64,000 nt of DNA, from IMG/VR virus record IMGVR_UViG_2711768037_000005, positions 1 to 64,000 of that record; one strand, given 5' to 3'. Position 1 is the first letter of the stretch; every line of letters begins with the position of its first letter. This DNA comes from a virus. Lineage: Duplodnaviria > Heunggongvirae > Uroviricota > Caudoviricetes. The translations under genes and the position numbers were made by a program. Below, piece by piece: positions 1-62,623 of the stretch. The notes beneath the pieces are model-generated. The model saw only the letters and a list, made by a program, of their open reading frames with translations. It was not told where the DNA came from and made no database searches.

Positions 1-142
1 GATCCTGGCATACAGGGTTGGTGTGTGAAAATAACTGATTAAGTGAGGAGGATGGTGTTGAAAAATAGGTAATCATATAACTATATAAATATGATGTGTG
101 ATATTAATTCACCATCCCGATTTGGCTTTTCATGGAGGAAAT

Positions 143-466
143 ATGTCGAACGAGATGGCGAGCGTGACAACAGAGCAAGTTGAGCGCATTGCCGCGATCG
201 TTGCTAGGGAAGTTGTTGGCAAATTAGGTAAAGAGCTACGAGAAGAAATTGGCCAAGAGGTCAACGACCAGCTTAAAACCTACTTTGGTGACATGACCCC
301 TGCGCAACATAGTATTCAACACTCTAATCTGGACAAACTCCTTAACCGGTTAGATTCCATCTCCAGTGGGTTCTTTGGCGGCATTGTATCTAAAATAACG
401 TCGTTCATTATTACCGCACTGCTTTTGGGGTTAGCCGCGTATGGCGTAAAAAATGGACTGCAATAA
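143..466 (+). CDS. hypothetical membrane protein with single C-terminal TM helix; possible holin or lysis regulator
   Basis: ORF track 98..466; ATG at 143 preceded by GGAGG; hydrophobic C-terminus ITSFIITALLLGLAAYGV; sits immediately upstream of the putative lysis genes. Confidence 0.3.
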   Translation: MSNEMASVTTEQVERIAAIVAREVVGKLGKELREEIGQEVNDQLKTYFGDMTPAQHSIQHSNLDKLLNRLDSISSGFFGGIVSKITSFIITALLLGLAAYGVKNGLQ

Positions 467-479
467 CAGGAGATCAAGG

Positions 480-1172
480 ATGAAGACTCCGAGAGGCATT
501 CGTAATAATAACCCCGGTAATCTGGATAAAGGATCACCGTGGCAAGGTCTGGTTGCGAATCCAGACGAACCGCGCTTTTGCACGTTTAAAGACCCTGTTT
601 GGGGGATTCGTGCGCTGGCGGTGACTCTAATTACCTACCACGACAAACGTCGCGCAAAAGACGGCTCAAGTATCGATACCATTCGTGAAGTTATTGAACG
701 TTGGGCACCGCCGAATGAAAACAACACTGACGCCTACATTAATGAGGTGTCTAAAGCCGTTGGTGTAACCGCAGACATGATCATCGATCTGCATGATTAC
801 GACATCCTTCGACCTTTGGTTGAGGCAATCATTCGCCACGAGAATGGTCGAGGTCCACTAAAAACGCTGAATACCTGGTATGCGGCAGAAGTTATTGAGG
901 AAGGTCTGCGTCGAGCTGGCGTCGTTAAGCCGGTGAAAACCGTGAAGGCTGTTCCTGTAACTAAAGAAACCGCAGGCGCAACTGTCACAGCAGGTATTGG
1001 TCTGGCGCAGCTTGCCGATGTTATGCCGCAGGTTTCCGCAGCTATGGATAAAGCACAAGGTCATATCTCTAGCGGGGATACAGTACGCATCATCTTCGGT
1101 ATTGCCACTATTGTTGTAGCAGGATTCATTGCCTGGTCGCAGGTAAGAAAACACCAGAAAGGGATGGTCTAA
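480..1172 (+). CDS. putative cell-wall hydrolase or lysis protein with conserved RNNNPGN motif and C-terminal TM anchor
   Basis: ORF 453..1172; likely ATG at 480 after CAGGAG; motif GIRNNNPGNL near N-terminus; hydrophobic segment IIFGIATIVVAGFIAW near C-terminus; position directly upstream of the spanin pair. Confidence 0.35.
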   Translation: MKTPRGIRNNNPGNLDKGSPWQGLVANPDEPRFCTFKDPVWGIRALAVTLITYHDKRRAKDGSSIDTIREVIERWAPPNENNTDAYINEVSKAVGVTADMIIDLHDYDILRPLVEAIIRHENGRGPLKTLNTWYAAEVIEEGLRRAGVVKPVKTVKAVPVTKETAGATVTAGIGLAQLADVMPQVSAAMDKAQGHISSGDTVRIIFGIATIVVAGFIAWSQVRKHQKGMV

Positions 1173-1173
1173 T

Positions 1174-1425
1174 ATGCTAGGCAGCCTGATGACAAAGCTA
1201 AAAGTTGCTTTGATTACGCTGGCTGCCGTTCTTTTCGTTCTGGTCGGCGCTTACACGATGGGCGGAAATGCGGCGCGACGAGCAATAGAAGAGAAGGCAA
1301 AACAGGAAGACAGGAAACGACTTCAAAGCACAGTGGACGTCAAAAATGAAACACTTGATGAGTTACGGAGCAAGGATGCTTCTACTGTTCATCATGAGTT
1401 GCACAATAAGTGGTTGCGTGATTAA
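1174..1425 (+). CDS. i-spanin (Rz-like)
   Basis: N-terminal TM LKVALITLAAVLFVLVGAYT followed by charged coiled-coil-like region; overlaps a lipoprotein ORF in another frame. Confidence 0.5.
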   Translation: MLGSLMTKLKVALITLAAVLFVLVGAYTMGGNAARRAIEEKAKQEDRKRLQSTVDVKNETLDELRSKDASTVHHELHNKWLRD

Positions 1426-1576
1426 GCCTCAACCCGCTGGTGTGCTTTTCTGCGATGCGGCTACACCGCTATACATCAGCCGTGATGATCTCATGACCGA
1501 AGAGACTGAAAGAGAGGTGCTTTTTCACAATATGATAGGGGAGCGATTGTGTGGATGGGGCAGAAAAGTACCATAA
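1346..1576 (+). CDS. o-spanin (Rz1-like) lipoprotein, overlapping the i-spanin gene out of frame
   Basis: Signal-like LLLFIMSCTISGC with lipobox-like cysteines, proline-rich mature part; overlapping Rz/Rz1 architecture; start may be the internal Met. Confidence 0.45.
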   Translation: MKHLMSYGARMLLLFIMSCTISGCVIKPQPAGVLFCDAATPLYISRDDLMTEETEREVLFHNMIGERLCGWGRKVP

Positions 1577-2903: not shown

Positions 2904-3050
2904 TTAACAGCCATTGATTCTCGCCTAAAAATTCTAAGGCAGCACCAACCATTTAACCTTTACACAGCAGCCGTAGGCATTTAGGCTATATCACATATAA
3001 GAAAACAAGTTGTTTCAGACAATAATAATAGACGCAAAGGGAACTCTCCA

Positions 3051-3719
3051 ATGACCAAGATCTTTGTGGTTGGCGGCACAAAGGGCGGGCCTGGCAAATC
3101 CACCGTTGCCCAGCAAATTGCCGTTTGCCTGAAAGTCAAAAAGAAGAAGAAGGTTTATATTACCGATATAGATATTCAGCGCACGACAACGAGCTGGTGT
3201 GAAGACCGTCGACAGAACGAAAACCTTGAGCTGATTCCTTTTGCATATGTTCAGGATGACATCATTAAGCATCTAAAATCGCTTCAGGGTAGAGCTGAGT
3301 TTGTAGTGGTAGATGCTGGTGGCTTCGACTCCGAAATTCAGCGACAAGCGATGCTGATGGCTGACGTTATCATTATCCCGCTGCGTCCTAAGCGTCGTGA
3401 TTTGAAATCTTTACGTGACATCGATCCTATTATCGACAATGTTCGCAATGTAAACGATAAAGTGAAGGTCCGTGCGGTCATGAACCAGTGCCCGGCTTTG
3501 CCATCACAAGTGTCTCGCATTCTGGCGGCTAAAGAGATTGTCGAGACGTTTGGCATCGAGCCTGCGCCTGTCAATCTATATAACCGCAACGTCTACGATG
3601 ATGCGGAAGAGTCTGGTCGTTCTATCTTTGAAATGACCGGTAGCGAGCGCGACAAAAAGGCGGAAGCCGAGTTTGAAGAATTTGTAGATTATCTATTGAG
3701 TCTGGAGGAAGAAGAATAA
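3051..3719 (+). CDS. parA: ParA/MinD-family partition ATPase (small ParA type)
   Basis: Deviant Walker A GGTKGGPGKST at N-terminus; 222 aa; stop overlaps start of a small downstream gene. Confidence 0.75.
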   Translation: MTKIFVVGGTKGGPGKSTVAQQIAVCLKVKKKKKVYITDIDIQRTTTSWCEDRRQNENLELIPFAYVQDDIIKHLKSLQGRAEFVVVDAGGFDSEIQRQAMLMADVIIIPLRPKRRDLKSLRDIDPIIDNVRNVNDKVKVRAVMNQCPALPSQVSRILAAKEIVETFGIEPAPVNLYNRNVYDDAEESGRSIFEMTGSERDKKAEAEFEEFVDYLLSLEEEE

Positions 3720-4078
3720 TGTCCATGAAAATGGGTGACCTAGCAAAGCGCAAAGAACCAGATGCACTGGCCAAGAACACAACTCCTTTGCGCCAACCAG
3801 TCAGACCACAGGGACGCCCGACTCGTGGCAAAGAGAAAATTAAAAGCCGCACAATGTCGCTGGAGGACGAATACTTTGAACTTCTGGAAATGATGAAGTG
3901 TATCCCTCGCTTCGAGAAGTTCACCCGTTCTGATGTGATTCGCGCAGCCATTTTCCATCTGGCAGAGAAGTCACCGCAGGAAATCGAGGACATTGTGAAA
4001 CTTAACGAGGCGATCACAGCTGCCGATGTAACGATGCGTACCGATGAAATCAAGCGAGAACTCATGAAAAAAGGCTGA
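3719..4078 (+). CDS. small ribbon-helix-helix-like partner protein (ParG/ParB-like centromere binder), putative
   Basis: Translationally coupled to parA (TAATG overlap); 119 aa with basic N-terminus and RHH-like segment MSLEDEYFELLEMMK. Confidence 0.4.
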   Translation: MSMKMGDLAKRKEPDALAKNTTPLRQPVRPQGRPTRGKEKIKSRTMSLEDEYFELLEMMKCIPRFEKFTRSDVIRAAIFHLAEKSPQEIEDIVKLNEAITAADVTMRTDEIKRELMKKG

Positions 4079-4108
4079 CAACTTCCGGTCTGGCAGCTTC
4101 AATCAGAA

Positions 4109-4166
4109 CCTGTTTCTGTATATAAATAATAAGTAACTTATTATTTATACGGAAGCAGGTCTTTTA
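4109..4166. terminator. large AT-rich hairpin with T-run; likely bidirectional terminator
   Basis: CCTGTTTCTGTATATAAAT ... ATTTATACGGAAGCAGG inverted repeat then TCTTTT; near-identical element at 50821-50893. Confidence 0.45.
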
Positions 4167-4267
4167 AAAGAAACCCACCAGAACAACTCCCTTCCGTTTT
4201 CACTTCCAAAAACTGACACCAGTCGCTATCATCCGCTCATTGCAATAAGTAAGTAACAACCTACCTG

Positions 4268-5017: not shown

Positions 5018-5060
5018 CTAATGCTAGAAAACAATTTGTTTAAAAAACAAAGGAAAGCAC

Positions 5061-11957: not shown

Positions 11958-12029
11958 GATGGTGTAGCTCAGCGGTAGAGCAGTTGGCTGTTAACCAACT
12001 GGTCGGTGGTTCGAATCCACCCACCATCG
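11958..12029 (+). tRNA. tRNA-Asn (anticodon GTT)
   Basis: Acceptor GATGGTG/CACCATC, D-arm TAGCTCAGCGGTAGAGCA, anticodon loop CTGTTAA, T-loop GGTGGTTCGAATCCACC, CCA encoded. Confidence 0.8.
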
Positions 12030-12037
12030 CCAATTTA

Positions 12038-12121
12038 GGGGAGTTAGTCCGTAGAGGTAGCGGTGTAGACTGTAAATCTACTGTCATGGCGACTCGGGTG
12101 GTTCGACTCCATCACTCCCCA
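12038..12121 (+). tRNA. tRNA-Tyr (anticodon GTA), long variable arm
   Basis: Acceptor GGGGAGT/ACTCCCC, anticodon stem-loop GTAGA-CTGTAAA-TCTAC, long variable arm, T-loop TTCGACT, CCA encoded. Confidence 0.75.
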
Positions 12122-12128
12122 CCAAATT

Positions 12129-12201
12129 GCCGGTTTAGCTCAGTTGGTAGAGCGGCTGCCTTGTAAGCAGGATGTCAGCGGTTCGAGTCCGTTAACCGGC
12201 A
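12129..12201 (+). tRNA. tRNA-Thr (anticodon TGT)
   Basis: Acceptor GCCGGTT/AACCGGC, D-arm TAGCTCAGTTGGTAGAGC, anticodon loop CTTGTAA, T-loop GGTTCGAGTCC, CCA encoded. Confidence 0.75.
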
Positions 12202-12695
12202 CCAACATAATATTGAGAACATTGGCGTAACGGGTTCATATCCCAATTTATGAATAAATGTTGCGTTGCCGCGTGACAACCAGTGTTCTCAACATTGTGG
12301 TGAATGCACAGGCTGATGTGCCGCAACTACAGTAGTGCGCGCTTTGCGGGGCTTGCTACAACCCTGTGTCGGAGATCAGCGCCGACCATCACAATTTGGC
12401 TCTCTTGCAACAGCATAACGCTGAAATATGTCCAATCTGGTGCGGCCTGTTCACCCGCCGTTAGCTCCACGAAACGGAGCGCACAACAGGAAAGAGCATT
12501 GAGAACCGCCGACTGCCCTGTTTGAAGCGTAAGTCCGTGCAAACGTCATACAGTGCTCTTTTCGTTGTGGTTGATGCGCAGACTGATGCGCGGAAAGAAA
12601 TGCCCCAGCGACACACGAGGCGAGTTCACACACTGCATTGCAGTCAGTAGCCGGGGTCGCTAAGCCGGAGATCAGTACCGGTAACCACAACAATT

Positions 12696-12779
12696 GGAGA
12701 GTAGGGAGCATGGTGCTCAAGCGGTCTTGAAAGCCGTCCCATTGCGCAAGCGATGATGGTTCGATTCCATTACTCTCCG
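12696..12779 (+). tRNA. tRNA-Ser (anticodon TGA), type II, putative
   Basis: Acceptor GGAGAGT/ACTCTCC, anticodon loop CTTGAAA, long variable arm, T-loop GGTTCGATTCC, CCA encoded; D-arm is atypical so the call is tentative. Confidence 0.55.
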
Positions 12780-13008
12780 CCAGACACAGCGTTGAGCGGT
12801 TTGGCCTTTTAATCAACCAGATTAAGACTCCGCTAACATAAACCAAACCGCTCAACGCTGTGTGTGAAATTCCACATATTTTATACATATCCATTTACGC
12901 AATTTTTTATTGTTCTTTCATACATTACTCTTATATTTTATTGTCGTTTTTTAACTGCTAAAATCGTATCGATTTTAGCTAAAGTTTATCGTTAAAGGAG
13001 TAACGATT

Positions 13009-14960: not shown

Positions 14961-15130
14961 ACATCGAATCAAATATTTAAAACTAGCTCTACAGAAAAAA
15001 ATGATTCCATACTCCTTAGGTATGGAATCATTTCCCGCATGAAAGATTTTAGCTTGATTCCAAAAGAATCAATGCCTAATATACTGGTTACTTATACAGG
15101 TAATCAGCGTAACTAGGTGAATACCAATAA

Positions 15131-16234
15131 ATGAAAAATAGCTTTGACAGAGCACGCGCAGCAGAAAACACCTCAAAAGAGGCAATTGAGTATCTCGAAA
15201 GAGCATCTCAAATGCAGGCCATTATGATCTCACAGATCAACAATAACATGATATTCTCGGACGCATTCATGTTATTCACTCGCTTATCTCTGCTGATAAC
15301 AAGACGTCGCCCAGAGATCGCTGTTCACTGTATTTTGATACATGTTTTACCGCACATTGCCGATATAAAAGTAAGTGACATTAATCGGTTCATGGTGAAC
15401 CAACTGGTAAACCCGTTAATACTGGATGGCAAAATTGTCATGGGCCGCCGCGTTTTCTCTCTGATGAAGCAGTTCCTTAGCTGGTGCGCCTTCCAGGGGA
15501 TGATAGACGTGTCACCGTTAAACGATATGTCACTAAACAAAGTTGCCGGTGGCGCAAAGCCCACACCTCGCGAGCGTAAGCTGACCGACGCAGAGGTATG
15601 GGTGTTCTGGAATATATGGGACTACTTCAATGTGTGCGCTGGTACAAAATGGGCGGCTAGGCTGTGTCTTGTATCAGCAAGACGACCTGACGAAGTACTG
15701 CGGGCTAAAAAAAGTGAGTTCAATCTTAAGCGTGGGGTTTGGAATCAAGGCAAGAGAAACAAGTCAGCACGTGAGCATTCGCTGCCTTTAAGCACATTAA
15801 TGCGCACATGCATTGAAGAGTTGTTCGAATACGGTAAAGACAGCCAGTGGCTCGTGCCTTCAAATAAAAAAATCGGGAAAGACCTTCCTATGTCTAAAGT
15901 GGCAATAGCACAGGCATTACGTCGTATTCTTGAACGGCCAGAACTGATGGAGCTTGAGCCATTTACACCCCGAGATTTGCGCCGTACTGCGCGTAGTTAC
16001 TTCCCAGCATTAGGCATAAGCCAGGAGGTATCACGCAAAATCATGAACCACAGTCTTGAGGGGATAGATCGGGTCTACGACCGGCACGATTATATGGACG
16101 AGATGCGAGACGCCTTAGAAAGTTTCTCGACGTACATCGCATCAATCGTAGAGCAACCGGATTTAGACGAAATTGACCACAAATTCAAGGGAGATCGTCT
16201 ATCAACAGAGCTTATTCGTGTAAATTTTTCATAG
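15131..16234 (+). CDS. tyrosine site-specific recombinase (integrase or dimer-resolution recombinase)
   Basis: C-terminal catalytic pattern: ARRPDEV (Arg), HSLEG (His), LRRTARS (Arg), YDRHDY (Tyr). Confidence 0.75.
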   Translation: MKNSFDRARAAENTSKEAIEYLERASQMQAIMISQINNNMIFSDAFMLFTRLSLLITRRRPEIAVHCILIHVLPHIADIKVSDINRFMVNQLVNPLILDGKIVMGRRVFSLMKQFLSWCAFQGMIDVSPLNDMSLNKVAGGAKPTPRERKLTDAEVWVFWNIWDYFNVCAGTKWAARLCLVSARRPDEVLRAKKSEFNLKRGVWNQGKRNKSAREHSLPLSTLMRTCIEELFEYGKDSQWLVPSNKKIGKDLPMSKVAIAQALRRILERPELMELEPFTPRDLRRTARSYFPALGISQEVSRKIMNHSLEGIDRVYDRHDYMDEMRDALESFSTYIASIVEQPDLDEIDHKFKGDRLSTELIRVNFS

Positions 16235-16615
16235 AGACTTTATGGCCTCAACAACCTTTTGTGATGCGCCTTTCTCTTTACCGAATCGCTCGTTATATGC
16301 AGCAAGAACCTGTTTTTCGTCCTCGTTAAGAGGAGCGGTGCCTTCTTTGTATAAAAATGCTGCGAGTTCAGGTTGGCGTTCTTCCAGCACCATCATCATA
16401 AGACGACTTGGCTCAATACCCAGCGCCAACGCCAGCGGACGAACCTTATCGATAGGCAAAGGAATTTTGCCACTTTTAATTAAAGAAAGGTTGTTGGCAT
16501 TTTTATAACCAATAAGTCTGGCTATTTGGGCCTGACTCATAGGCGAGGATTCAATCAGCCCTGCGATAAAAGCAGCATAGCGACTTTCTATAAATTCAAT
16601 GTTGTTGTCAGACAT
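16229..16615 (-). CDS. XRE-family helix-turn-helix transcriptional regulator
   Basis: HTH segment SQAQIARLIGYKNANNLSLIKSGK; only sizeable minus-strand gene besides rep; palindrome GGTAAGTGCTTACC about 30 bp upstream of its start. Confidence 0.65.
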   Translation of the reverse strand: MSDNNIEFIESRYAAFIAGLIESSPMSQAQIARLIGYKNANNLSLIKSGKIPLPIDKVRPLALALGIEPSRLMMMVLEERQPELAAFLYKEGTAPLNEDEKQVLAAYNERFGKEKGASQKVVEAIKSL

Positions 16616-16862: not shown

Positions 16863-17075
16863 ATGAAAACAACTATTTCCAGCCTAATCACTCTTGAGAT
16901 CGGACACGTTGAAAAATTAGCTGATGAATGTGTAGCTGACATTCTCACCGAATTACCAAATGAGCAGATTCAGGTTGGTATGCATGACGCAACAGCCTTT
17001 ATATTCCTACTTAATAACAAACGCTTCACGCTTATCAATACCGGCTCTGGCTCTTTAGCCGTCAGAATCTGTTAA
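16863..17075 (+). CDS. hypothetical small protein
   Basis: ORF track; AT-rich surroundings. Confidence 0.25.
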   Translation: MKTTISSLITLEIGHVEKLADECVADILTELPNEQIQVGMHDATAFIFLLNNKRFTLINTGSGSLAVRIC

Positions 17076-17174
17076 CCCCCTCTGCTCCCTGCGCGAATGG
17101 CTTAGTCCCCTGTTCGCGCAGCGCTACATTAAACACACTAGTAAATAATTTGTTTTCACAACAAAGGATTAACC

Positions 17175-19283
17175 ATGTCTAAAAAACGATCTATCAAAGA
17201 GATTCAAGACTTCCGTGACAGTGTAAAACGAGTAGTCGCTCTTCTTTCTGGTAAAAACATCCCTGTTGCAGAACGAGGGGACGACGCTTATGTACGCTAT
17301 AACGATGATGGAGAGCCAATTCTCGTAAACATCCCATCAATCCCGGATAACGCAACACCGGCATTGATGAATGCTGTGCGCGGATTTCTCGATCATGAGG
17401 TTGCTCACATTTTGTTTACCGATATTCGTGTGTCCAACAAAATGAGAGAAAAAGGACGCGTTCCTTCCTGGTCGCTATGGAATGCCTTAGAAGACGTGTT
17501 CATCGAGCGAAAAATGGGGCAGGTCTTTAACGGAACAAGACGTAATCTGATGGCAACTCAGCGCCTTATAATCGAAAAAGTCTTTAAACCAAAGGCTTCA
17601 GAGGCTATTGCTTATTGTGGCAAAGATCAGCGCGCGCTTTTTCTAAACTTCTTTCTCTGTCCGGTTGTAAGAGCCTGGGATGGCCAAGCACCGTTCGTTG
17701 ATTTCATGGATGAATACTGGCCTGTCATTGAGAAACCAATTTCATTATTAAAAGAACATGGTATCGATGTGGCCGTGCGTAACATGTCTTGCACCGAGGA
17801 TTGTGTAAAGGTGGCTGCGACCATAGCTAAGATCCTCAAAGACACTGAAAGTGAAAGCAAAGGTAAGGAGTCAGCTCCGGGAAAAACTTCCGATCCTTCA
17901 GACGCTGACCAAACGGATGCCTCTGGAGAAAACAATGAAGACAACGGAGATCATGAGACACCCAAGGCGTTAGATAATCACAAATCTATCAAACCAGAAT
18001 CGAACAGTAACCACAAACATGATAATAACGACAGTGATGATTCAGATAATTCTGAATCATCAGAAACAATATTCGATGATACAGAAAATGATAACGAGGT
18101 ATCAGATTCTGATGCTTCTGATAACGCGGCGTCAGAATCATTAACCGCTGACCACGAAAAAAGAAAAACGACAGAAGACGGCTCTTCAGATATTCCAACT
18201 CCGTCAAAAATGAGTCTGGAAGAGGCTTTAGAGGAGCTGGATAGCATAGAAGATGAAGTCGGAGGCATGACAGAAGATGCTCTATCCGAAACGATTAAAA
18301 GCGAGTTAACAGAAAGCTCGAAAAGCGAATACAGGCCATACAATCGCTCATACGACTTCATCGGCTCGATTGATCAGGCAGAAGCCCATATCAAACGGCT
18401 TATTAAAACATTCTCCGATATTGATTTAGGAGAATATCCAATCAGCCGCTATCGCATCGTTCCTGAAGGCAACCAGCTCTTCGACAAATATATTGAAAAG
18501 CATCTTTCGTCAGGTGTTTCGTCGACGCTGGCAAAAGACCTGGAGCGAGCAATAGCAAGCAGAAACAGAGTTCAGTTTATACCGGGCCAGCGTCGGGGGC
18601 GCATTCATGGTTCTAGTATCTACAGATTAGCAATGAATGATGATCGCGTGTTTCGTAAAAAAGAAGAATCTAAAGCCGTTAACGCCTGTGTTCAACAAGT
18701 GATTGATTTATCAGGTTCAATGAGTGGTATAACGATACAGTTGGCTCTTGCAAGTGCATATACCATCGCCGATGCCCTTGATCGAATAAATGTTCCCAAC
18801 ATTATCACCGGCTTCACTACATTTGGTAGTCATATGGCGGCAGGAGAACTTAAGGCTGTCAAGTATGAGTTCTCTCGCTTTGAATCTTTAATGCTACCTG
18901 TCATCAAAAATTGGAATGAAAAGGTAAATTCTCGCGAAGTTCGCTCACGTATGGGGTGCGTAGGCTACACATTCCCACTTCTTAATAACGTGGATGGTGA
19001 AAGCATAGCCAGCCTTGCATCGTTATTTTCAGGTCGCATGGAGGACAGGAAGATCATGCTTGTTCTGAGTGATGGCGCGCCGTGGGCTGTTGGGAGAGGT
19101 TTTGACGCCCATTTGCGTTCGGTTGCTAAGCAAATTGAAACGCAGACTGACATTGATTTGATGGCAATTGGCATCATGACTGACGCACCGGAGAGATTTT
19201 ACTCAAATCATGCCCTGGTAACGAGCGTTGATAGTCTTGGTTCATCTGTAGTTACTGAACTATCTCGTATCATTTTGAAGTGA
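17175..19283 (+). CDS. vWA-domain protein with acidic low-complexity centre (CobT-like)
   Basis: MIDAS-type DLSGSMSG; long D/E/S-rich linker DNNDSDDSDNSESSE...; paired with the downstream AAA+ ATPase. Confidence 0.6.
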   Translation: MSKKRSIKEIQDFRDSVKRVVALLSGKNIPVAERGDDAYVRYNDDGEPILVNIPSIPDNATPALMNAVRGFLDHEVAHILFTDIRVSNKMREKGRVPSWSLWNALEDVFIERKMGQVFNGTRRNLMATQRLIIEKVFKPKASEAIAYCGKDQRALFLNFFLCPVVRAWDGQAPFVDFMDEYWPVIEKPISLLKEHGIDVAVRNMSCTEDCVKVAATIAKILKDTESESKGKESAPGKTSDPSDADQTDASGENNEDNGDHETPKALDNHKSIKPESNSNHKHDNNDSDDSDNSESSETIFDDTENDNEVSDSDASDNAASESLTADHEKRKTTEDGSSDIPTPSKMSLEEALEELDSIEDEVGGMTEDALSETIKSELTESSKSEYRPYNRSYDFIGSIDQAEAHIKRLIKTFSDIDLGEYPISRYRIVPEGNQLFDKYIEKHLSSGVSSTLAKDLERAIASRNRVQFIPGQRRGRIHGSSIYRLAMNDDRVFRKKEESKAVNACVQQVIDLSGSMSGITIQLALASAYTIADALDRINVPNIITGFTTFGSHMAAGELKAVKYEFSRFESLMLPVIKNWNEKVNSREVRSRMGCVGYTFPLLNNVDGESIASLASLFSGRMEDRKIMLVLSDGAPWAVGRGFDAHLRSVAKQIETQTDIDLMAIGIMTDAPERFYSNHALVTSVDSLGSSVVTELSRIILK

Positions 19284-29534: not shown

Positions 29535-29585
29535 CTCGTTATTATCACACACAAGAAAACAATTTGTTAAAAGGTTAAGTTAATT

Positions 29586-33190: not shown

Positions 33191-33237
33191 ATGCAAACTG
33201 ACTGCGGCACGTTCCGCAGTCATATTTCATAGTCGTC

Positions 33238-33770
33238 ACCGCTGACAGCATACACAATCAACTGCCGCTGATAGCATATCGAGAGTCTATCTCACCGCTC
33301 ACAGCATACTTTACTCGATTTTTTACCGCTGACAGCATACTTAAGACATTGCATGAATAATGTGTACCGGTATGGGTATAACCAGAACAAAATTACCGCT
33401 GGCAGCATACGAAGGTCTGACATATGCCATTAATTACCGCTGATAGCATATCCAAACAAAAATTCCTCAATAAAACACCGCTGACAGCATACGTTCTATC
33501 AGGGAGCAGCAGGCAATAAATGCCTTTCACTACAAGCAATCAGCGCAATAGCAATAGAATGTTAGTGAGCGCAAACCTATATGGAATGCACTCTTCGAGG
33601 TTAGTAACCACTGGGGAGGTATGACAGAGCATTGAGTGGTGATAGATGATTTACCGCTCACAGCATACGTTCATCTCACTATACCGCTGGTAGCATATCT
33701 TTAACCGTTCACAGCATACATTTCAGAAAAATAGCCGCTGATAGCATACATTTCACCGCTGACAGCATAT
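33238..33770. repeat. iteron array downstream of rep: 12 copies of a 16-bp repeat ACCGCTGACAGCATAC (variants) in two clusters
   Basis: Copies start at 33238, 33264, 33294, 33325, 33395, 33436, 33477, 33653, 33683, 33704, 33734, 33755; irregular spacing; last copy overlaps the rep stop codon. Confidence 0.7.
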
Positions 33771-34864
33771 CAAAGCAGTTTGAGACTATTGGAAAGGATC
33801 TCAATCATCTTGATATTTTCAGGCGTCAAATTCTGCGAAAGTTCAGTTATCTTGTTGATAATGTTCTGTTTAGCATCAATTTCCCCGGCTTTCTCATCTG
33901 GTTTTTTGGGTTCGATGTCTTCAGGTTTTGGCGGTGCGACTTTAAGTTTTGGATTACGGCTGTGAATCTGGATATAGATCGACCGCCCTCGCTTAATCTC
34001 GCTGTATTCGAGATAGCCCAAATCTTGGAGAGCTTTTAAGCCGTTACGTATAGTCTGATTCTGCGAGCTTACATTCCTGCTACTCAAATTGAGTCGCGCA
34101 CGCAATCGAGCAAGCGATACCGGCGCAGGCTTGGTTGGAAGACTTTCGATGAAGGTGTACAGAGCCTGTGCTGTTTCTTTGCGTGGTAGCTTATTGATAA
34201 CCTTTAACTGCAAAAGAACCTTATGGTCAAAGCGATATAGTTCGGCCAGCTTCGGTTCTGCATAGAACACCACCGTATCTTTCTGCTCGTTGTAGTCCAC
34301 GCTATTGATGAGGTGCACCATCAGAAGCGAGATCTTGTTAGAGCCGTCGACGTTCTTTTCTTCATACGTTCTCTGGAAAGACAGAGTTGTACGCATGATC
34401 TTCAAAAGACTGTTTGTAAGCCGGTCGCGGAGTGTTTTGCGGATCTGTGACGATGGATAGCCACAAAACTTCGCAAATTTCGTGATGCTTAACTCGACAC
34501 GACCATTAGGTTCGCCGTATTCTGCCAGCGAACGCACAACGCCCACCCACGTTTTGAAATCATGATCCATGTCCAGGCGAGGACCGGTTATCTTGATATC
34601 GGAATAGCCTTCAGAACGGGCTACTTCGAGCTGGACAAGCTCCTTTGAAGCATCGATCTCATTTGGCTTGTTACGTTTACTGTATTTTGTTCCCTTAAGC
34701 GTGGGGACGAACAACCCCAGTCGCATCAACGCAATTGGTTGGACTGTATTGTTGCTATTAGGGACAAGTTCCCCTGTGTACAATTCAAGGGAACCTTCTT
34801 CAAAGTTGTCGATGTTATCTTCTACTTCTTTGTTATTTTTACCTTTTTTATTTTTTGTGGACAT
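33770..34864 (-). CDS. iteron-binding replication initiator (Rep), putative
   Basis: Only large minus-strand gene; flanked on both sides by iteron arrays; start taken at Met of MSTKNKKGK because the longer ORF-track N-terminus runs into the upstream iterons. Confidence 0.65.
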   Translation of the reverse strand: MSTKNKKGKNNKEVEDNIDNFEEGSLELYTGELVPNSNNTVQPIALMRLGLFVPTLKGTKYSKRNKPNEIDASKELVQLEVARSEGYSDIKITGPRLDMDHDFKTWVGVVRSLAEYGEPNGRVELSITKFAKFCGYPSSQIRKTLRDRLTNSLLKIMRTTLSFQRTYEEKNVDGSNKISLLMVHLINSVDYNEQKDTVVFYAEPKLAELYRFDHKVLLQLKVINKLPRKETAQALYTFIESLPTKPAPVSLARLRARLNLSSRNVSSQNQTIRNGLKALQDLGYLEYSEIKRGRSIYIQIHSRNPKLKVAPPKPEDIEPKKPDEKAGEIDAKQNIINKITELSQNLTPENIKMIEILSNSLKLL

Positions 34865-34884
34865 GTGGACACCTTTGTCATTCA

Positions 34885-34986
34885 ACCGCTGACAGCATAC
34901 TTGATTTGCCGCTGACAGAATACCAAAAACAGTTGGCAGCATACGGTGAACCGCTGACAGACTATCAATTACCGCTGACAGCATAC
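34885..34986. repeat. iteron array upstream of rep (about 5 copies, one degenerate)
   Basis: ACCGCTGACAGCATAC at 34885 and 34971; variants at 34908, 34931 and 34950. Confidence 0.65.
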
Positions 34987-35017
34987 ATGAACATGGCTTC
35001 AGACCAGTCGTGGCGCG

Positions 35018-43017: not shown

Positions 43018-43122
43018 CATATGGTGGGGTATAACCCCACCTTCTCTTTGATTTGTAAGCCTTGTTTAAACAAATAAGATAACAACTTGTTTAAACACAT
43101 CAAAAAGCAAAAGGAAAAACAC

Positions 43123-46486: not shown

Positions 46487-46900
46487 ATGGCAAGAGGTAT
46501 GTATGTCTTATGCGAAATTGAAGGTGTGCTGGCAAATGCCAGCCATCGTAAATCAGTATCTGACGCGGATGCAGGCCAGCTCATTGCCGGTGATGAACTC
46601 ATTTTCCCCACCAGCCGTATGTTGCGTGGTTTTGCTCGCTCAGGGGCTGAAGTGGTGCTTATCAGTAGCCGCTCTGAAACTCTTGAAGCGCCAACTAAAC
46701 GATGGCTGAAAGATTTTGGCGTTGATTATGACTGGCTTCATCTCGTACCGAATGGCACCAGTTATGAGAAGCATATTAAGCGCACATTAGCGGAGCATAA
46801 AGGCGATCTGCTTATCGCTGCGCTGGTGCACGATCCTCGACTCCGTGCCGCTTTAGCCGACTCTCACCATCGACCGGTCATCTATGAGGTGAGCAAATGA
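46487..46900 (+). CDS. hypothetical protein
   Basis: In-frame ATG at 46487 just after thyA stop (ORF track 46439); translationally coupled to DHFR gene. Confidence 0.3.
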   Translation: MARGMYVLCEIEGVLANASHRKSVSDADAGQLIAGDELIFPTSRMLRGFARSGAEVVLISSRSETLEAPTKRWLKDFGVDYDWLHLVPNGTSYEKHIKRTLAEHKGDLLIAALVHDPRLRAALADSHHRPVIYEVSK

Positions 46901-47373
46901 AGATGATCGCTGCTGTTGGCCGTAACTATGAGATCGGCATAGCGAATGAACTCCCCTGGCGTTGTTCTACCGATCTGAAGCTATTTAAGAGACTCACCAA
47001 AAACGCCACTGTCGTTATGGGGCGTAAAACGATGGAAAGTCTCAAACGCCCTCTTCCAGAGCGTCATAACCTCGTTTTGACGCGCTCTCATGGCTTTGTA
47101 CCAAATGGATTCTACCCTGCTGGTGTGGATGATGTGTTGCGATTACCAGAGCCTGTGTGGGTGATTGGCGGGGAACAAATTTACTCGCTATTCATGCCGC
47201 ATGTTGAAGAGATTTGGCTCTCCCACATCGGCGTTGATGTACCAAACGCCGATGCATTCTTCCCGGCAAGCATGATGCGTAACTTAGGCTTTGTGCCTGT
47301 TGAAACAGCTTATACCCAACGAGCCAGCGAGGAAGAGCCTGGCTTTTCGCAGATCGTATACAGAAGGTCGTAA
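46897..47373 (+). CDS. dihydrofolate reductase
   Basis: MIAAVGRNYEIGIANELPW and VVMGRKTMESLKRPLPER match the DHFR N-terminal fold; 158 aa; adjacent to thyA. Confidence 0.8.
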   Translation: MKMIAAVGRNYEIGIANELPWRCSTDLKLFKRLTKNATVVMGRKTMESLKRPLPERHNLVLTRSHGFVPNGFYPAGVDDVLRLPEPVWVIGGEQIYSLFMPHVEEIWLSHIGVDVPNADAFFPASMMRNLGFVPVETAYTQRASEEEPGFSQIVYRRS

Positions 47374-60663: not shown

Positions 60664-61165
60664 CTATCAGGCACTGCGTGAGGCGGCAGAGCGTGCAATT
60701 CCGGCAATGGAACGCCTGTTAATGTTGCCAGTTGATGATGAGCTGATAAGCGAACAGGAACTTAAAGATAGCGGTGTTGATATTGATGCGCTCAACGCCT
60801 TCAAATTTCTGGCCGGACCAGAAACCGTGCTGGCGCTACTGGATGAGAGCAACGCATTAGAGGAAACGCGTATCAACGATGTTTGTCGTATTGCAGAACT
60901 AACAAAACAACTGGAGTTGGCAAAATCAAAACTCAACGAGCAGCGTGAGTATTACGAGGGCGTTATCTCGGATGGAAGTAAGCGTATTGCTGAACTGGAA
61001 GCGCGGGAAGTTCAATTACCGACTCGCTACGACCTTCGATATGGACACCCGATAAATGCAGATGAGCGACATGTCATGATACCTAAAGAAAATGGCAGTT
61101 GGCTTTACCTGATTGACCTAGAACACGCATTACGCGTCGCTGGCATTCGCATCAAAGGAGAGTGA
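60650..61165 (+). CDS. hypothetical protein
   Basis: ORF track. Confidence 0.4.
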
Positions 61166-61166
61166 G

Positions 61167-61490
61167 ATGGCCACATCGCATTATGCAATCACCCAGGAAA
61201 AAGTATTTCGCTTGCTCGAACGTCTGGAGGCGCTCGCCACGGAGGAAGATATATCCCCGGAGATGCTGGTTGAGTGCAGCCGTGTGATATTGCGTCACAA
61301 GAACGACATCGCGCGGCTGACATCTGGCGCACCATCCGTATCAGCCAGTCCAACGCTTTATTGCAGCTTCTGCAACAAATCCCAGCACACCGTTAAAAAG
61401 TTAATTGCCGGGGACAACGTTTTCATCTGCAACGAGTGCGTGAAAGATTGCAACAACATTATCCAGGAAGATCAAAGGGAATCAGCATGA
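61167..61490 (+). CDS. small protein with C-terminal ClpX-type zinc-binding domain
   Basis: [39 protein letters not shown] is nearly colinear with the E. coli ClpX N-terminal zinc-binding domain; no AAA+ module follows. Confidence 0.6.
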
Positions 61491-62041
61491 AATTTTCCAA
61501 ATTTTCTGAGTTGGTGAATCGTATTTTGTCCAACAACCACAGCCATCGTCGCGATATGGATGTAACGATCGTTGTTCATTCGCCTGGTCGCATCGGTTCA
61601 ACACCATCAGTTGAGGTTCAGTCAATTCAGGCGGGTTTTGATTGGGATGCCGGGCAAGTGATGATTTTTCCAGCACAGCCACTGACCACGCTAACACCAG
61701 AGCAGGTTGCTGATATCACTGATAGTGTGCGCAAAGGTCAGTCTTGGCACGCGTATCAGGAATACAAGAAGCATAAAGAGCAGTTGGAAAAATTGTCGAT
61801 GGAGTTGGAAGCCGCTAAACAGCGGGAAAAAGATCTGTTTATGGAAAATGTTCGACTTAAGTCAGGTATAGCCGGTCTGATACACCTCGGTATTCGATAT
61901 GCGGATGTTGAGGTCATGAAAATTGCTGGAGATGCCCAGCTTTCTACTCCATGCACTGACAGCATCATAAACAGCATTGCAGCAGGCATTTTCACCAAAG
62001 AGGGGGGTCAGCACGATGAGAACACTAGAAGTTCGCGCTGA
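61488..62041 (+). CDS. hypothetical protein
   Basis: In-frame ATG within ORF-track 61436..62041; ATGA overlap with upstream stop. Confidence 0.35.
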
Positions 62042-62201
62042 AGACGTAATCCCTGGTGATGTGCTCATAACATCTAAAGGTCAACAATGTGCGGTTAAAT
62101 CTTTTTGGATGGAAGATGACAAAGTGACTCTGTTCGGTACGGATGGTTCCGAAACTGATTATGACTACGACGAATTGCTTGTTGTTGAGAGAGCTGCCTA
62201 A
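62016..62201 (+). CDS. hypothetical small protein
   Basis: Internal ATG of ORF-track 61977..62201. Confidence 0.3.
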   Translation: MRTLEVRAEDVIPGDVLITSKGQQCAVKSFWMEDDKVTLFGTDGSETDYDYDELLVVERAA

Positions 62202-62623
62202 TGACCACCTTAACCAAAGAACAGTTAATCTCCCATGCACGCGAAAGCGTTAGTTATCTGGAAGACTTGAAAGGACGTGTTAGTAAAGAAGGTGCGGACT
62301 GCAAAGTTGTTATTGAGATGGTTGAACGAGATCTAAAACTGGCACGAATTGCACTGGCCTCGCTGGAAGCAAAACCAATAGGTGCTTTCCACATTGCAGA
62401 ACAGCAGGTCGATGGCACAAGTGACTACATCAAGGATGGAGAATGGCCTATTGATAATGGAATTATTGAGGTCTACGCCGCTCCACCCGTTCCAGTAGTA
62501 CCGGAAGAAAAACCAATGCCTAATCCTCTTAGCATGTACGCGGTTGATGCTGTTGCCGCTATTGCAGAGGTGAGAGGCTGGAACGCCTGCCGTGCCGCTA
62601 TGCTTCAGGGAAAAGGAGAGTGA
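62201..62623 (+). CDS. hypothetical protein
   Basis: ORF track. Confidence 0.4.
   Translation: MTTLTKEQLISHARESVSYLEDLKGRVSKEGADCKVVIEMVERDLKLARIALASLEAKPIGAFHIAEQQVDGTSDYIKDGEWPIDNGIIEVYAAPPVPVVPEEKPMPNPLSMYAVDAVAAIAEVRGWNACRAAMLQGKGE

Follow-up and report, generated by a model that had tools for sequence, protein, structure and literature searches.

SSU5-type phage-plasmids are common in clinical Escherichia coli, Shigella, Salmonella and Klebsiella, and they carry resistance genes. The SSU5 group has already been defined as a group of phage-plasmids (PMC7969092; PMC11652158), and for the prophage of one member, Cyrano, quantitative polymerase chain reaction gave 5.5 episome copies per chromosome, with siphovirus particles being produced (PMC9928086). 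The stretch analyzed here, positions 1 to 64,000 of IMG/VR record IMGVR_UViG_2711768037_000005 (64,000 nucleotides (nt) in total, hereafter the window), is, judging from its relatives, an element of this type and thus belongs to an enterobacterial virus family living as free circular plasmids. We consider it highly probable that its positions 2959-4078 form the partition (par) cassette of the element, in which a type Ib ParA ATPase is coupled to a small adaptor protein and both are served by one sigma-70 promoter. The stable inheritance of SSU5-type elements could then be attributed to this putative cassette, whose adaptor has carried the label “unknown function” or toxin.

Within the SSU5 group (SSU5, pHCM2, Cyrano/pLF82 and pWPMR2-like Shigella plasmids), the same gene order is found at 85-98% nucleotide identity, and the only difference from the window lies in the cargo flanking the cassette. 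In its working, the cassette would most resemble type Ib systems such as ParF-ParG-parH of TP228, where the centromere and the operator lie upstream of the operon and overlap its promoter. In both loci, the first gene encodes a small Walker ATPase that lacks an N-terminal DNA-binding domain, and the second a small protein whose N-terminal tail is basic and disordered. However, the ParA of the window resembles ParF only remotely (E 4e-10), its partner has two additional C-terminal helices, and no array of short boxes is present. A further comparison is offered by P1, whose ParA is of type Ia with an N-terminal helix-turn-helix (HTH) domain, whose ParB is a large HTH protein, whose parS lies downstream, and which possesses Cre/loxP and dispersed C1 operators. 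Like P1, the window combines an iteron replicon and putative active partition with scattered repressor-type boxes and a tyrosine recombinase whose 13/14-bp inverted-repeat site would serve multimer resolution, yet no protein sequence relationship between the two extends beyond the P-loop.

A type Ib ParA and its small coupled partner

The 222-amino-acid (aa) product of parA (Table 1) carries a deviant Walker A motif with the signature lysine (GGTKGGPGKST, residues 8-18), which aligns with that of ParF. The nearest solved structures were TP228 ParF (4dzz, E 4e-10, residues 9-199 against 8-189 of 206) and ParA 5u1g. The protein also matched PHROG 164, “ParA-like partition protein” (E 2e-51), and the Pfam P-loop families MipZ, AAA_31, CbiA and ParA, and residues 9-213 aligned with positions 6-202 of the 203 in the NCBIfam model NF041546, ParA_partition (E 4e-33), at 114.7 bits against a curated cut-off of 180. 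Its size and the lack of an N-terminal HTH domain are as in the type Ib class, and in the SSU5 and Cyrano records the gene product is already labeled a partition protein.

An earlier reading of the window, made from the sequence alone (the sequence-only reading), had named a MinD-type cell-division protein as the identity of ParA that would speak against partition. The MinD models scored far below their cut-offs (TIGR01968, 27.7 bits versus 212.9; PRK10818, 19.9 versus 508), while the partition model aligned over its full length. The C-terminus of ParA is acidic (...DYLLSLEEEE) and has no amphipathic membrane helix, and its neighbors are the 119-aa open reading frame (ORF) and phage genes, rather than minC or minE. 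Because of the ParF and NF041546 alignments, the failed MinD score and the acidic C-terminus, we classify the protein as a type Ib ParA and not as MinD. A Cyrano gene annotated “MinD” (CYRAN_99) is an ApbC/Mrp-type cargo gene that lies outside the window.

The gene for the 119-aa partner, referred to below as parB, is tightly coupled to parA. The parA stop codon TAA (3717-3719) shares its final A with the partner’s ATG (a TAATG overlap), and a GGAGG sequence is found at 3703-3707, 11 nt upstream. In the closest relative, RefSeq places the start two codons later in the same frame, yielding 117 aa, and the coupling is tight with either start. The partner matches PHROG 5111 (function unknown) over its full length (E 2e-78). 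With 25 matches among 5.8 billion proteins, and 19 representatives among 1.84 billion, its relatives appear as a tiny orphan family. The parA-partner pair is nevertheless conserved in seven diverged lineages, including four remote ones, and the partner is always found directly 3' of a ParA of 221-229 aa.

Alignments of the partner family revealed a conserved N-terminal peptide, G-[DG]-L-[AG]-K (MGDLAKR in the window), and after it a linker that varies, a basic stretch that ends with [KR]SRTxS[LMI]E[DE]E[YF], and a [ST]R[ST]DV.RA motif; the stretch RPQGRPTRGKxKIKSR is conserved as well. This layout resembles the sequence pattern of strand, helix A and helix B in ribbon-helix-helix (RHH) proteins. 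The AlphaFold2 model of the protein (predicted local distance difference test (pLDDT) 70) comprises four helices and a disordered, low-pLDDT segment at residues 1-45, suggesting that a flexible basic N-terminal tail lies ahead of a putative DNA-binding domain, as in the ParG/omega class. Two RHH families gave weak matches in a consistent register: RHH_1 on the family member P0027 (17.1 bits, below the cut-off of 20.5) and aCcr1 on the 119-aa query (20 bits). No significant similarity to ParG was detected (hhalign P 0.13), no Pfam domain or recognized DNA-binding domain was found in the 119-aa protein, and three fold searches returned no match. We therefore regard the RHH fold as plausible, though unproven. 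Thus, the part of the sequence-only reading that described a ParA coupled to a 119-aa ORF holds, whereas its term “RHH-like” is weakly supported.

The distribution of the cassette agrees with its proposed role. By nucleotide comparison, the par region shares 95-96% identity with its counterparts in Escherichia phages CMS-2020a, PhiR41_1 and Cyrano; identity falls to 85% in Salmonella phage SSU5 and to 79% in Klebsiella phage-plasmids. For window positions 1-25000, the best match was pOkiPb01698_2, a circular E. coli plasmid of 108,543 bp (98.4% identity over 94%), and the same segment matches 1,366 plasmid records, 1,303 of which are typed as non-mobilizable. A probe for the par cassette (2945-4078) hit 265 places in 5,426 complete E. 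coli genomes, all 265 on plasmids and none on a chromosome; similarly, a backbone probe from the cobT region (17000-19283) hit 225 places in complete E. coli genomes, 225 of them on plasmids. The window combines phage and plasmid functions, namely a lysis cassette, parAB, and a Rep3 initiator flanked by iterons. It does not include the siphovirus structural genes, which are present in the near-identical plasmid pOkiPb01698_2. These results, along with the Cyrano episome and the SSU5-type identity, support the proposal of the sequence-only reading that the element is an extrachromosomal prophage, and integration at a chromosomal site, which would have contradicted it, was not seen in these relatives. 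The sole counter-example that we met is a chromosomally integrated remnant with a repB-parA region reported in S. Agona (bioRxiv 10.1101/2025.09.12.675607). The phage-plasmid lifestyle is thus supported, but it was already known for the SSU5 family; it is ordinary and adds nothing new.

An alternative to DNA partition is that the pair positions another cargo or forms a regulatory module, for example in lytic-cycle DNA organization or exclusion, or that the small ORF encodes a toxin. ParA-family ATPases can position non-DNA cargo, a general property that lends this alternative some weight, as does the lack of a recognized DNA-binding domain in the 119-aa protein. Against it, a small ParA with a small coupled gene is the layout of type Ib plasmid partition, and the cassette is restricted to low-copy extrachromosomal elements, which need partition. 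Moreover, the related Yersinia pestis plasmid pMT1, which is without the cassette, has a P1/P7-type ParAB, as if one had replaced the other. The toxin reading was rejected, as the 119-aa ORF matched no RelE/ParE family in Pfam, NCBIfam or PADLOC. Overall, we consider a function of the pair other than DNA partition extremely unlikely. The label “RelE/ParE putative toxin” of the Cyrano homolog CYRAN_29 (L001 4776-5135) is probably a mis-annotation of the partition adaptor. This homolog was transcribed 9-fold over the prophage background in the lysogen (PMC9928086).

The promoter block and the candidate centromere

Both flanks of the par cassette, 1577-2958 and 4079-4108, are hot spots of cargo exchange. 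The upstream cargo of the window consists of two ORFs of unknown function within 1754-2874 (PHROGs 2594 and 3307); a KacT toxin-antitoxin pair, not carried by the window, takes their place in Cyrano, and other variants have unrelated DNA. Across 46 distinct upstream variants, the sequence 5' of the par -35 hexamer is unrelated. Downstream of parB, one to three extra ORFs are found in Cyrano, SSU5, pJN2-26 and the lineage represented by locus L009, and none of these in the window. In SSU5 and pJN2-26, the distance from the parB stop codon to the start of the next gene is at most 4 nt (TGATATG), and in Cyrano a short hairpin directly follows the stop. Because the next gene or the hairpin abuts the parB stop in these three elements, they leave no room for an adjacent cis-acting site downstream. 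The cassette is an island between two cargo hot spots, and an adjacent cis-acting site must therefore fall in approximately 2945-3050.

Centromeres located 3' of their operons are known from P1 (parS), F (sopC) and pB171 (parC2). The most striking symmetric element near the operon is also downstream of parB, a palindrome at 4109-4159 whose inner arms (4121-4149) match perfectly as 14+1+14, and it is present in all SSU5-type lineages examined. Variable cargo of 0.03 to ~2 kb separates it from parB, while the distance to the next backbone gene is fixed: the hairpin always lies ~130 nt before the homolog of gene 4277, even where other genes stand between it and parB. In 35 distinct variants of the hairpin, nearly every one of the 14 outer pairs is Watson-Crick or T.G (pair position 9, for example, is TG in 21, TA in 6, CG in 6 and CA in 2), so that the variation of the arms preserves plus-strand pairing, and the central AT-rich part shows no sequence conservation. 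RNA folding gave -26.7 kcal/mol (z -7.8) for the plus strand versus -19.0 for the minus strand. Since T.G pairs wobble on the plus strand only, and a run of T follows, the hairpin is best read as an RNA terminator. Acting rightward, this probable intrinsic terminator would close the par/cargo region and mark the start of the conserved replication backbone. We thus rejected the palindrome as parS and consider that role highly unlikely for it.

In Klebsiella-type relatives (L005 4373-4700; L097 3442-3895), the simple hairpin is replaced by an inverted repeat with arms of ~63 bp around ~200 bp, and the enclosed segment has a terminator hairpin of its own. This long inverted repeat could be an invertible or mobile segment.

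Upstream of parA, the interval left for a cis-acting site contains the par promoter, which we infer from its sequence. A consensus promoter scanner did not report it, the -10 hexamer being too weak, but hexamers and spacing are kept in the relatives: TTTACA/TAGGCT in L009 and L096, TTGTCA/TAGGCT in L005, and TTTACA/TAGTAT in L097. Starting at its -35 hexamer is a 59-nt non-coding block (2959-3017) that is near-invariant among the 46 distinct upstream variants. The block holds a TAGGC-N3-TAGGC direct repeat (2974-2978 and 2982-2986; 8-bp phasing) and a dyad box. In the window, as in the whole genome of a relative, neither the block nor the TAGGC doublet has a second copy.

The conservation of the block stands out against the divergence of the adjacent genes. 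SSU5, with 92% ParB identity and 57% identity at the fourfold-degenerate sites of parA, retains 58 of the 59 positions, and Klebsiella pJN2-26, with 83% ParA identity and 39% at fourfold sites, retains 57. In L009 (ParB identity 63%, fourfold sites 36%) and L005 (50% and 32%), only 41 and 34 of the 59 positions match, respectively, with TAGGCT and the dyad alone retained. Because the silent-site divergence of L009 and L005 is close to that of pJN2-26, and yet their blocks have changed, the block follows the type of ParA/ParB and not elapsed time.

Other locations of parS received no support. A sliding conservation profile over parA and parB peaked only at the Walker motifs and other protein motifs. 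Tandem Repeats Finder reported no repeats next to parA, and no significant family of dispersed repeats adjoins the gene, in line with the sequence-only reading, which had seen no direct-repeat centromere there. We tentatively place parS and the operator in 2959-3017 because the cassette is an island, the block is under strong selection, and it is unique.

Several observations weigh against our interpretation of the cassette or of the block. The NF041546 score of ParA is below the curated cut-off, as stated above. Type Ib centromeres usually carry repeat arrays; here, such an array of short repeats is missing, and the block offers the TAGGC doublet and one dyad only. The SRTxS residues of the adaptor, which are expected to contact DNA, are conserved across lineages with differing blocks and are therefore awkward for type-specific recognition. 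The conservation of the block could also reflect another regulator instead of the adaptor. Finally, the literature searched yielded no experiment that addressed partition by this cassette. Taking these points together, the assignment of both operator and centromere to exactly 2959-3017 is tentative, a possibility that we rate at somewhat less than even. If it holds, parS is narrowed to a 59-nt block that changes with the ParA/ParB type, which would make it a target for incompatibility typing and for curing strategies.

The way in which type Ib systems work suggests how the cassette may bind DNA, at which site, and how it may stimulate the ATPase and regulate itself. Bound to the promoter block (~2965-3017), dimers of the 119-aa protein would repress the operon and build the partition complex. 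The flexible N-terminal peptide (MGDLAKR and the basic linker) would contact ATP-bound ParA dimers spread over the nucleoid and trigger their ATPase activity. The resulting ParA gradient would space the ~5 copies of the plasmid-prophage, such that each daughter cell receives one. The iteron replicon, ~30 kb away, would back the cassette, and the Cre/lox-like recombinase and its site would keep the copies monomeric.

Operator-like boxes shared with other promoters

The dyad box in the par promoter is one of a dispersed set. Its 17-bp consensus is GAAAACAA-N-TTGTTTAA, also written GAAAACAA-N-TTGTTT(A/T)(A/C). With up to 3 mismatches allowed, the window contains 8 sites, compared with 0.73 expected, a number that none of 100 shuffles reached. 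All are intergenic, lie 15-54 nt before start codons and are oriented with the downstream genes, among them parA, the helicase gene, cobT and nrdB. Scanning both strands of the whole genome of a relative gave 22 matches, including a few near-symmetrical sites that were counted on each strand; the matches typically lie 9-13 nt after a -10-like hexamer. The box of the helicase gene is held at the orthologous place in all lineages, although its flanks drift.

Partition proteins that double as global regulators are known, namely delta/omega of pSM19035 and KorB of RK2, and the sharing of an operator-like box between the par promoter and many other promoters is a likeness to these systems. It raises the question of whether the 119-aa protein is itself a global regulator, acting on the scattered boxes as a dispersed centromere and as operators. 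In its favor, the par promoter itself carries a box (3001-3017), and the boxes show strong enrichment, an intergenic location and the same orientation as the genes behind them. The half-site AAACAA is the most widely shared upstream 6-mer of seven ParB-family loci (6 of 7; reached by 4 of 200 shuffles), and the putative DNA-reading residues of the family are conserved. The evidence from pMT1 opposes it. This plasmid has no homolog of the type Ib ParA or of the 119-aa protein, by tblastn and by an unfiltered profile search of all its ORFs, and its partition pair is the P1/P7-type ParAB. It still has 7 boxes, compared with 0.37 expected, including the orthologous box before cobT. Furthermore, no dyad is found in the par promoters of the remote ParB-family loci L096 and L100, and the genes transcribed in the Cyrano lysogen include the parB homolog but not most of the genes that bear a box. 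Taken together, we find this alternative unlikely.

Because pMT1 keeps the boxes without the 119-aa family, the box is apparently read by a factor other than the adaptor. For the same reason, and because there are at least 20 boxes genome-wide, we rejected the dyad box as a ParB-specific centromere. It is better explained as a backbone operator of some other phage regulator that does not depend on the 119-aa protein. This sets the element apart from delta/omega and KorB: the boxes outlast the adaptor in pMT1, so the global regulator here is probably another protein. As the par promoter carries a box found genome-wide, this second protein probably links expression of the par genes to the regulatory circuit of the phage. 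The 128-aa HTH protein encoded on the minus strand at 16229-16615 is our guess for the reader of the box. A related arrangement is that of N15, in which, according to a passage in PMC11652158, the partition protein of a phage-plasmid (SopAB) binds four sites dispersed among phage genes. N15 differs in that its system is F-type (Ia), and in that the dispersed boxes of the window are independent of the partition adaptor.

Were the adaptor to read the boxes after all, which is improbable, it would act as a dispersed centromere protein and, at the same time, as a global switch between plasmid maintenance and the early genes of the phage; a replacement factor would then hold the boxes of pMT1. A weaker version, in which one repressor controls the partition, helicase, nucleotide-metabolism and other operons via the shared operator, would be independently new; no description of such a regulon was found in the literature searched. 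Neither the role of the 119-aa family nor the location of parS was found there, and we offer these, as well as the box regulon, as leads rather than findings. A second test of box independence would require E. coli relatives without parAB, and none was found in the 5,426 genomes, where backbone and cassette co-occur.

A second dispersed intergenic motif, (G/A)ATAAGTAAC, often followed by ACTTAT, occurs at 14 sites with at most 1 mismatch, compared with 4.3 expected, and 0 of 100 shuffles reached this number. One copy forms the center of the hairpin after parB, and a second precedes the start of gene 4277 by ~20 nt in every lineage.

Recombinase, replicon and other modules of the window

Table 1. 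Coordinates of the features discussed, in window positions
Feature	Position	Strand	Basis
Lysis cassette: holin, endolysin, Rz and overlapping Rz1 spanin	~98-1576	+	ORFs and synteny with Cyrano, SSU5, pJN2-26
Predicted sigma-70 par promoter: -35 TTTACA 2959-2964, 17-nt spacer, -10 TAGGCT 2982-2987	2959..2987	+	sequence
Invariant non-coding block, candidate operator and parS	2959..3017	.	conservation across lineages
Dyad box GAAAACAA-G-TTGTTTCA, ~13 nt past the par -10	3001..3017	+	motif search
parA, 222-aa type Ib (ParF-like) deviant Walker A ATPase	3051..3719	+	structure, NCBIfam and PHROG matches
119-aa partner, putative centromere-binding adaptor (parB)	3719..4078	+	ORF, PHROG 5111, synteny
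Long hairpin CCTGTTTCTGTATA...TATACGGAAGCAGG, AT-rich top, then TCTTTT	4109..4165	+	folding, pairing conservation
Lox-like core AAATGATTCCATAC-TCCTTAG-GTATGGAATCATTT (14-7-14)	14999..15033	.	perfect arms, single-copy
Tyrosine recombinase, candidate multimer resolvase	15131..16234	+	Pfam PF00589, PHROG 1
Plasmid replicon, Rep3/RepB-type initiator and flanking iterons	33234..34990	-	repeats and Pfam
Dyad boxes	3001-3017, 5027-5043, 17141-17157, 29555-29571, 43078-43094, 53294-53310, 54023-54039, 58566-58582		
(G/A)ATAAGTAAC motif, approximate starts	4128, 4244-4257, 7690, 15087, 19300, 24883, 28415, 45358		

The sequence-only reading had based its proposal of a phage-plasmid on several other modules of the window, and these were largely recovered. 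The tyrosine recombinase matched Phage_integrase (PF00589) with 40 bits against a cut-off of 27.1, as well as PHROG 1, “integrase”, and it is 85% identical in pMT1. Approximately 100 nt upstream of its gene lies the lox-like site. The arms of this site do not vary between the window, pOkiPb01698_2, Cyrano and pMT1, in contrast to its 7-nt spacer and its flanks. Because of these invariant arms and the variable spacer, we interpret the site as a simple core of the lox/FRT/dif type. The site supports dimer resolution as the task of the recombinase, with integration still compatible; that relatives in E. coli were never chromosomal points indirectly the same way. A LexA-box-like sequence, ATACTGGTTACTTATACAGG, is located at 15078-15100, ~35 nt before the recombinase start. 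It departs from CTGT-N8-ACAG by one mismatch in the window and fits it perfectly in Cyrano and pMT1, a hint that the recombinase promoter is under SOS control. In the window as a whole, LexA boxes show no enrichment (15 sites, compared with 14.8 expected).

The iteron replicon was likewise confirmed. At least 13 copies of the iteron ACCGCTGACAGCATA, at 33234-33774 and 34885-34990, flank both sides of a Rep3-type initiator gene (33770..34984, minus strand; Rep3_N match E 5e-9), whose homolog is named “RepB family plasmid replication initiator protein” in RefSeq. The spanin-containing lysis cassette is corroborated by the syntenic cassettes annotated in SSU5 and Cyrano. Following the annotation of pOkiPb01698_2 and Cyrano, the gene order runs from the lysis cassette through cargo and parA-parB to a DnaB-like helicase, primase, ligase and tRNAs. 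It continues with the tyrosine recombinase and a divergent HTH regulator, CobT-like and AAA proteins and DnaE, and ends with UvsY-like, gp32-like and RecA proteins (depositors’ names), the RepB/Rep3 initiator, SbcCD, RuvC, NrdAB, ThyX and dihydrofolate reductase (DHFR). The replisome and recombination set described earlier is thus present, but the attribute “T4-like” given to it fits only the UvsY-, gp32- and UvsW-like accessory genes, because the polymerase is a bacterial-type DnaE; the accessory names are the depositors’ own.

Three further observations concern genes outside the par region. Four tRNA genes (Asn, Tyr, Thr and Ser) are located at 11958-12782, between the ligase region and a DUF6645/SASA esterase gene. 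The DHFR of 158 aa, encoded at 46897-47373, is 2 residues off the pOkiPb01698_2 protein that RefSeq names DfrA51 (trimethoprim-resistant DHFR); dihydrofolate reductase genes of this kind in phage-plasmids are the subject of PMC12217456. Two adjacent proteins with ParB/Srx N-terminal domains are encoded next to the packaging genes, outside the window (pOkiPb01698_2 60914-62262; Cyrano CYRAN_119/120). This pair is also present in pMT1 and is unrelated to the 119-aa protein.

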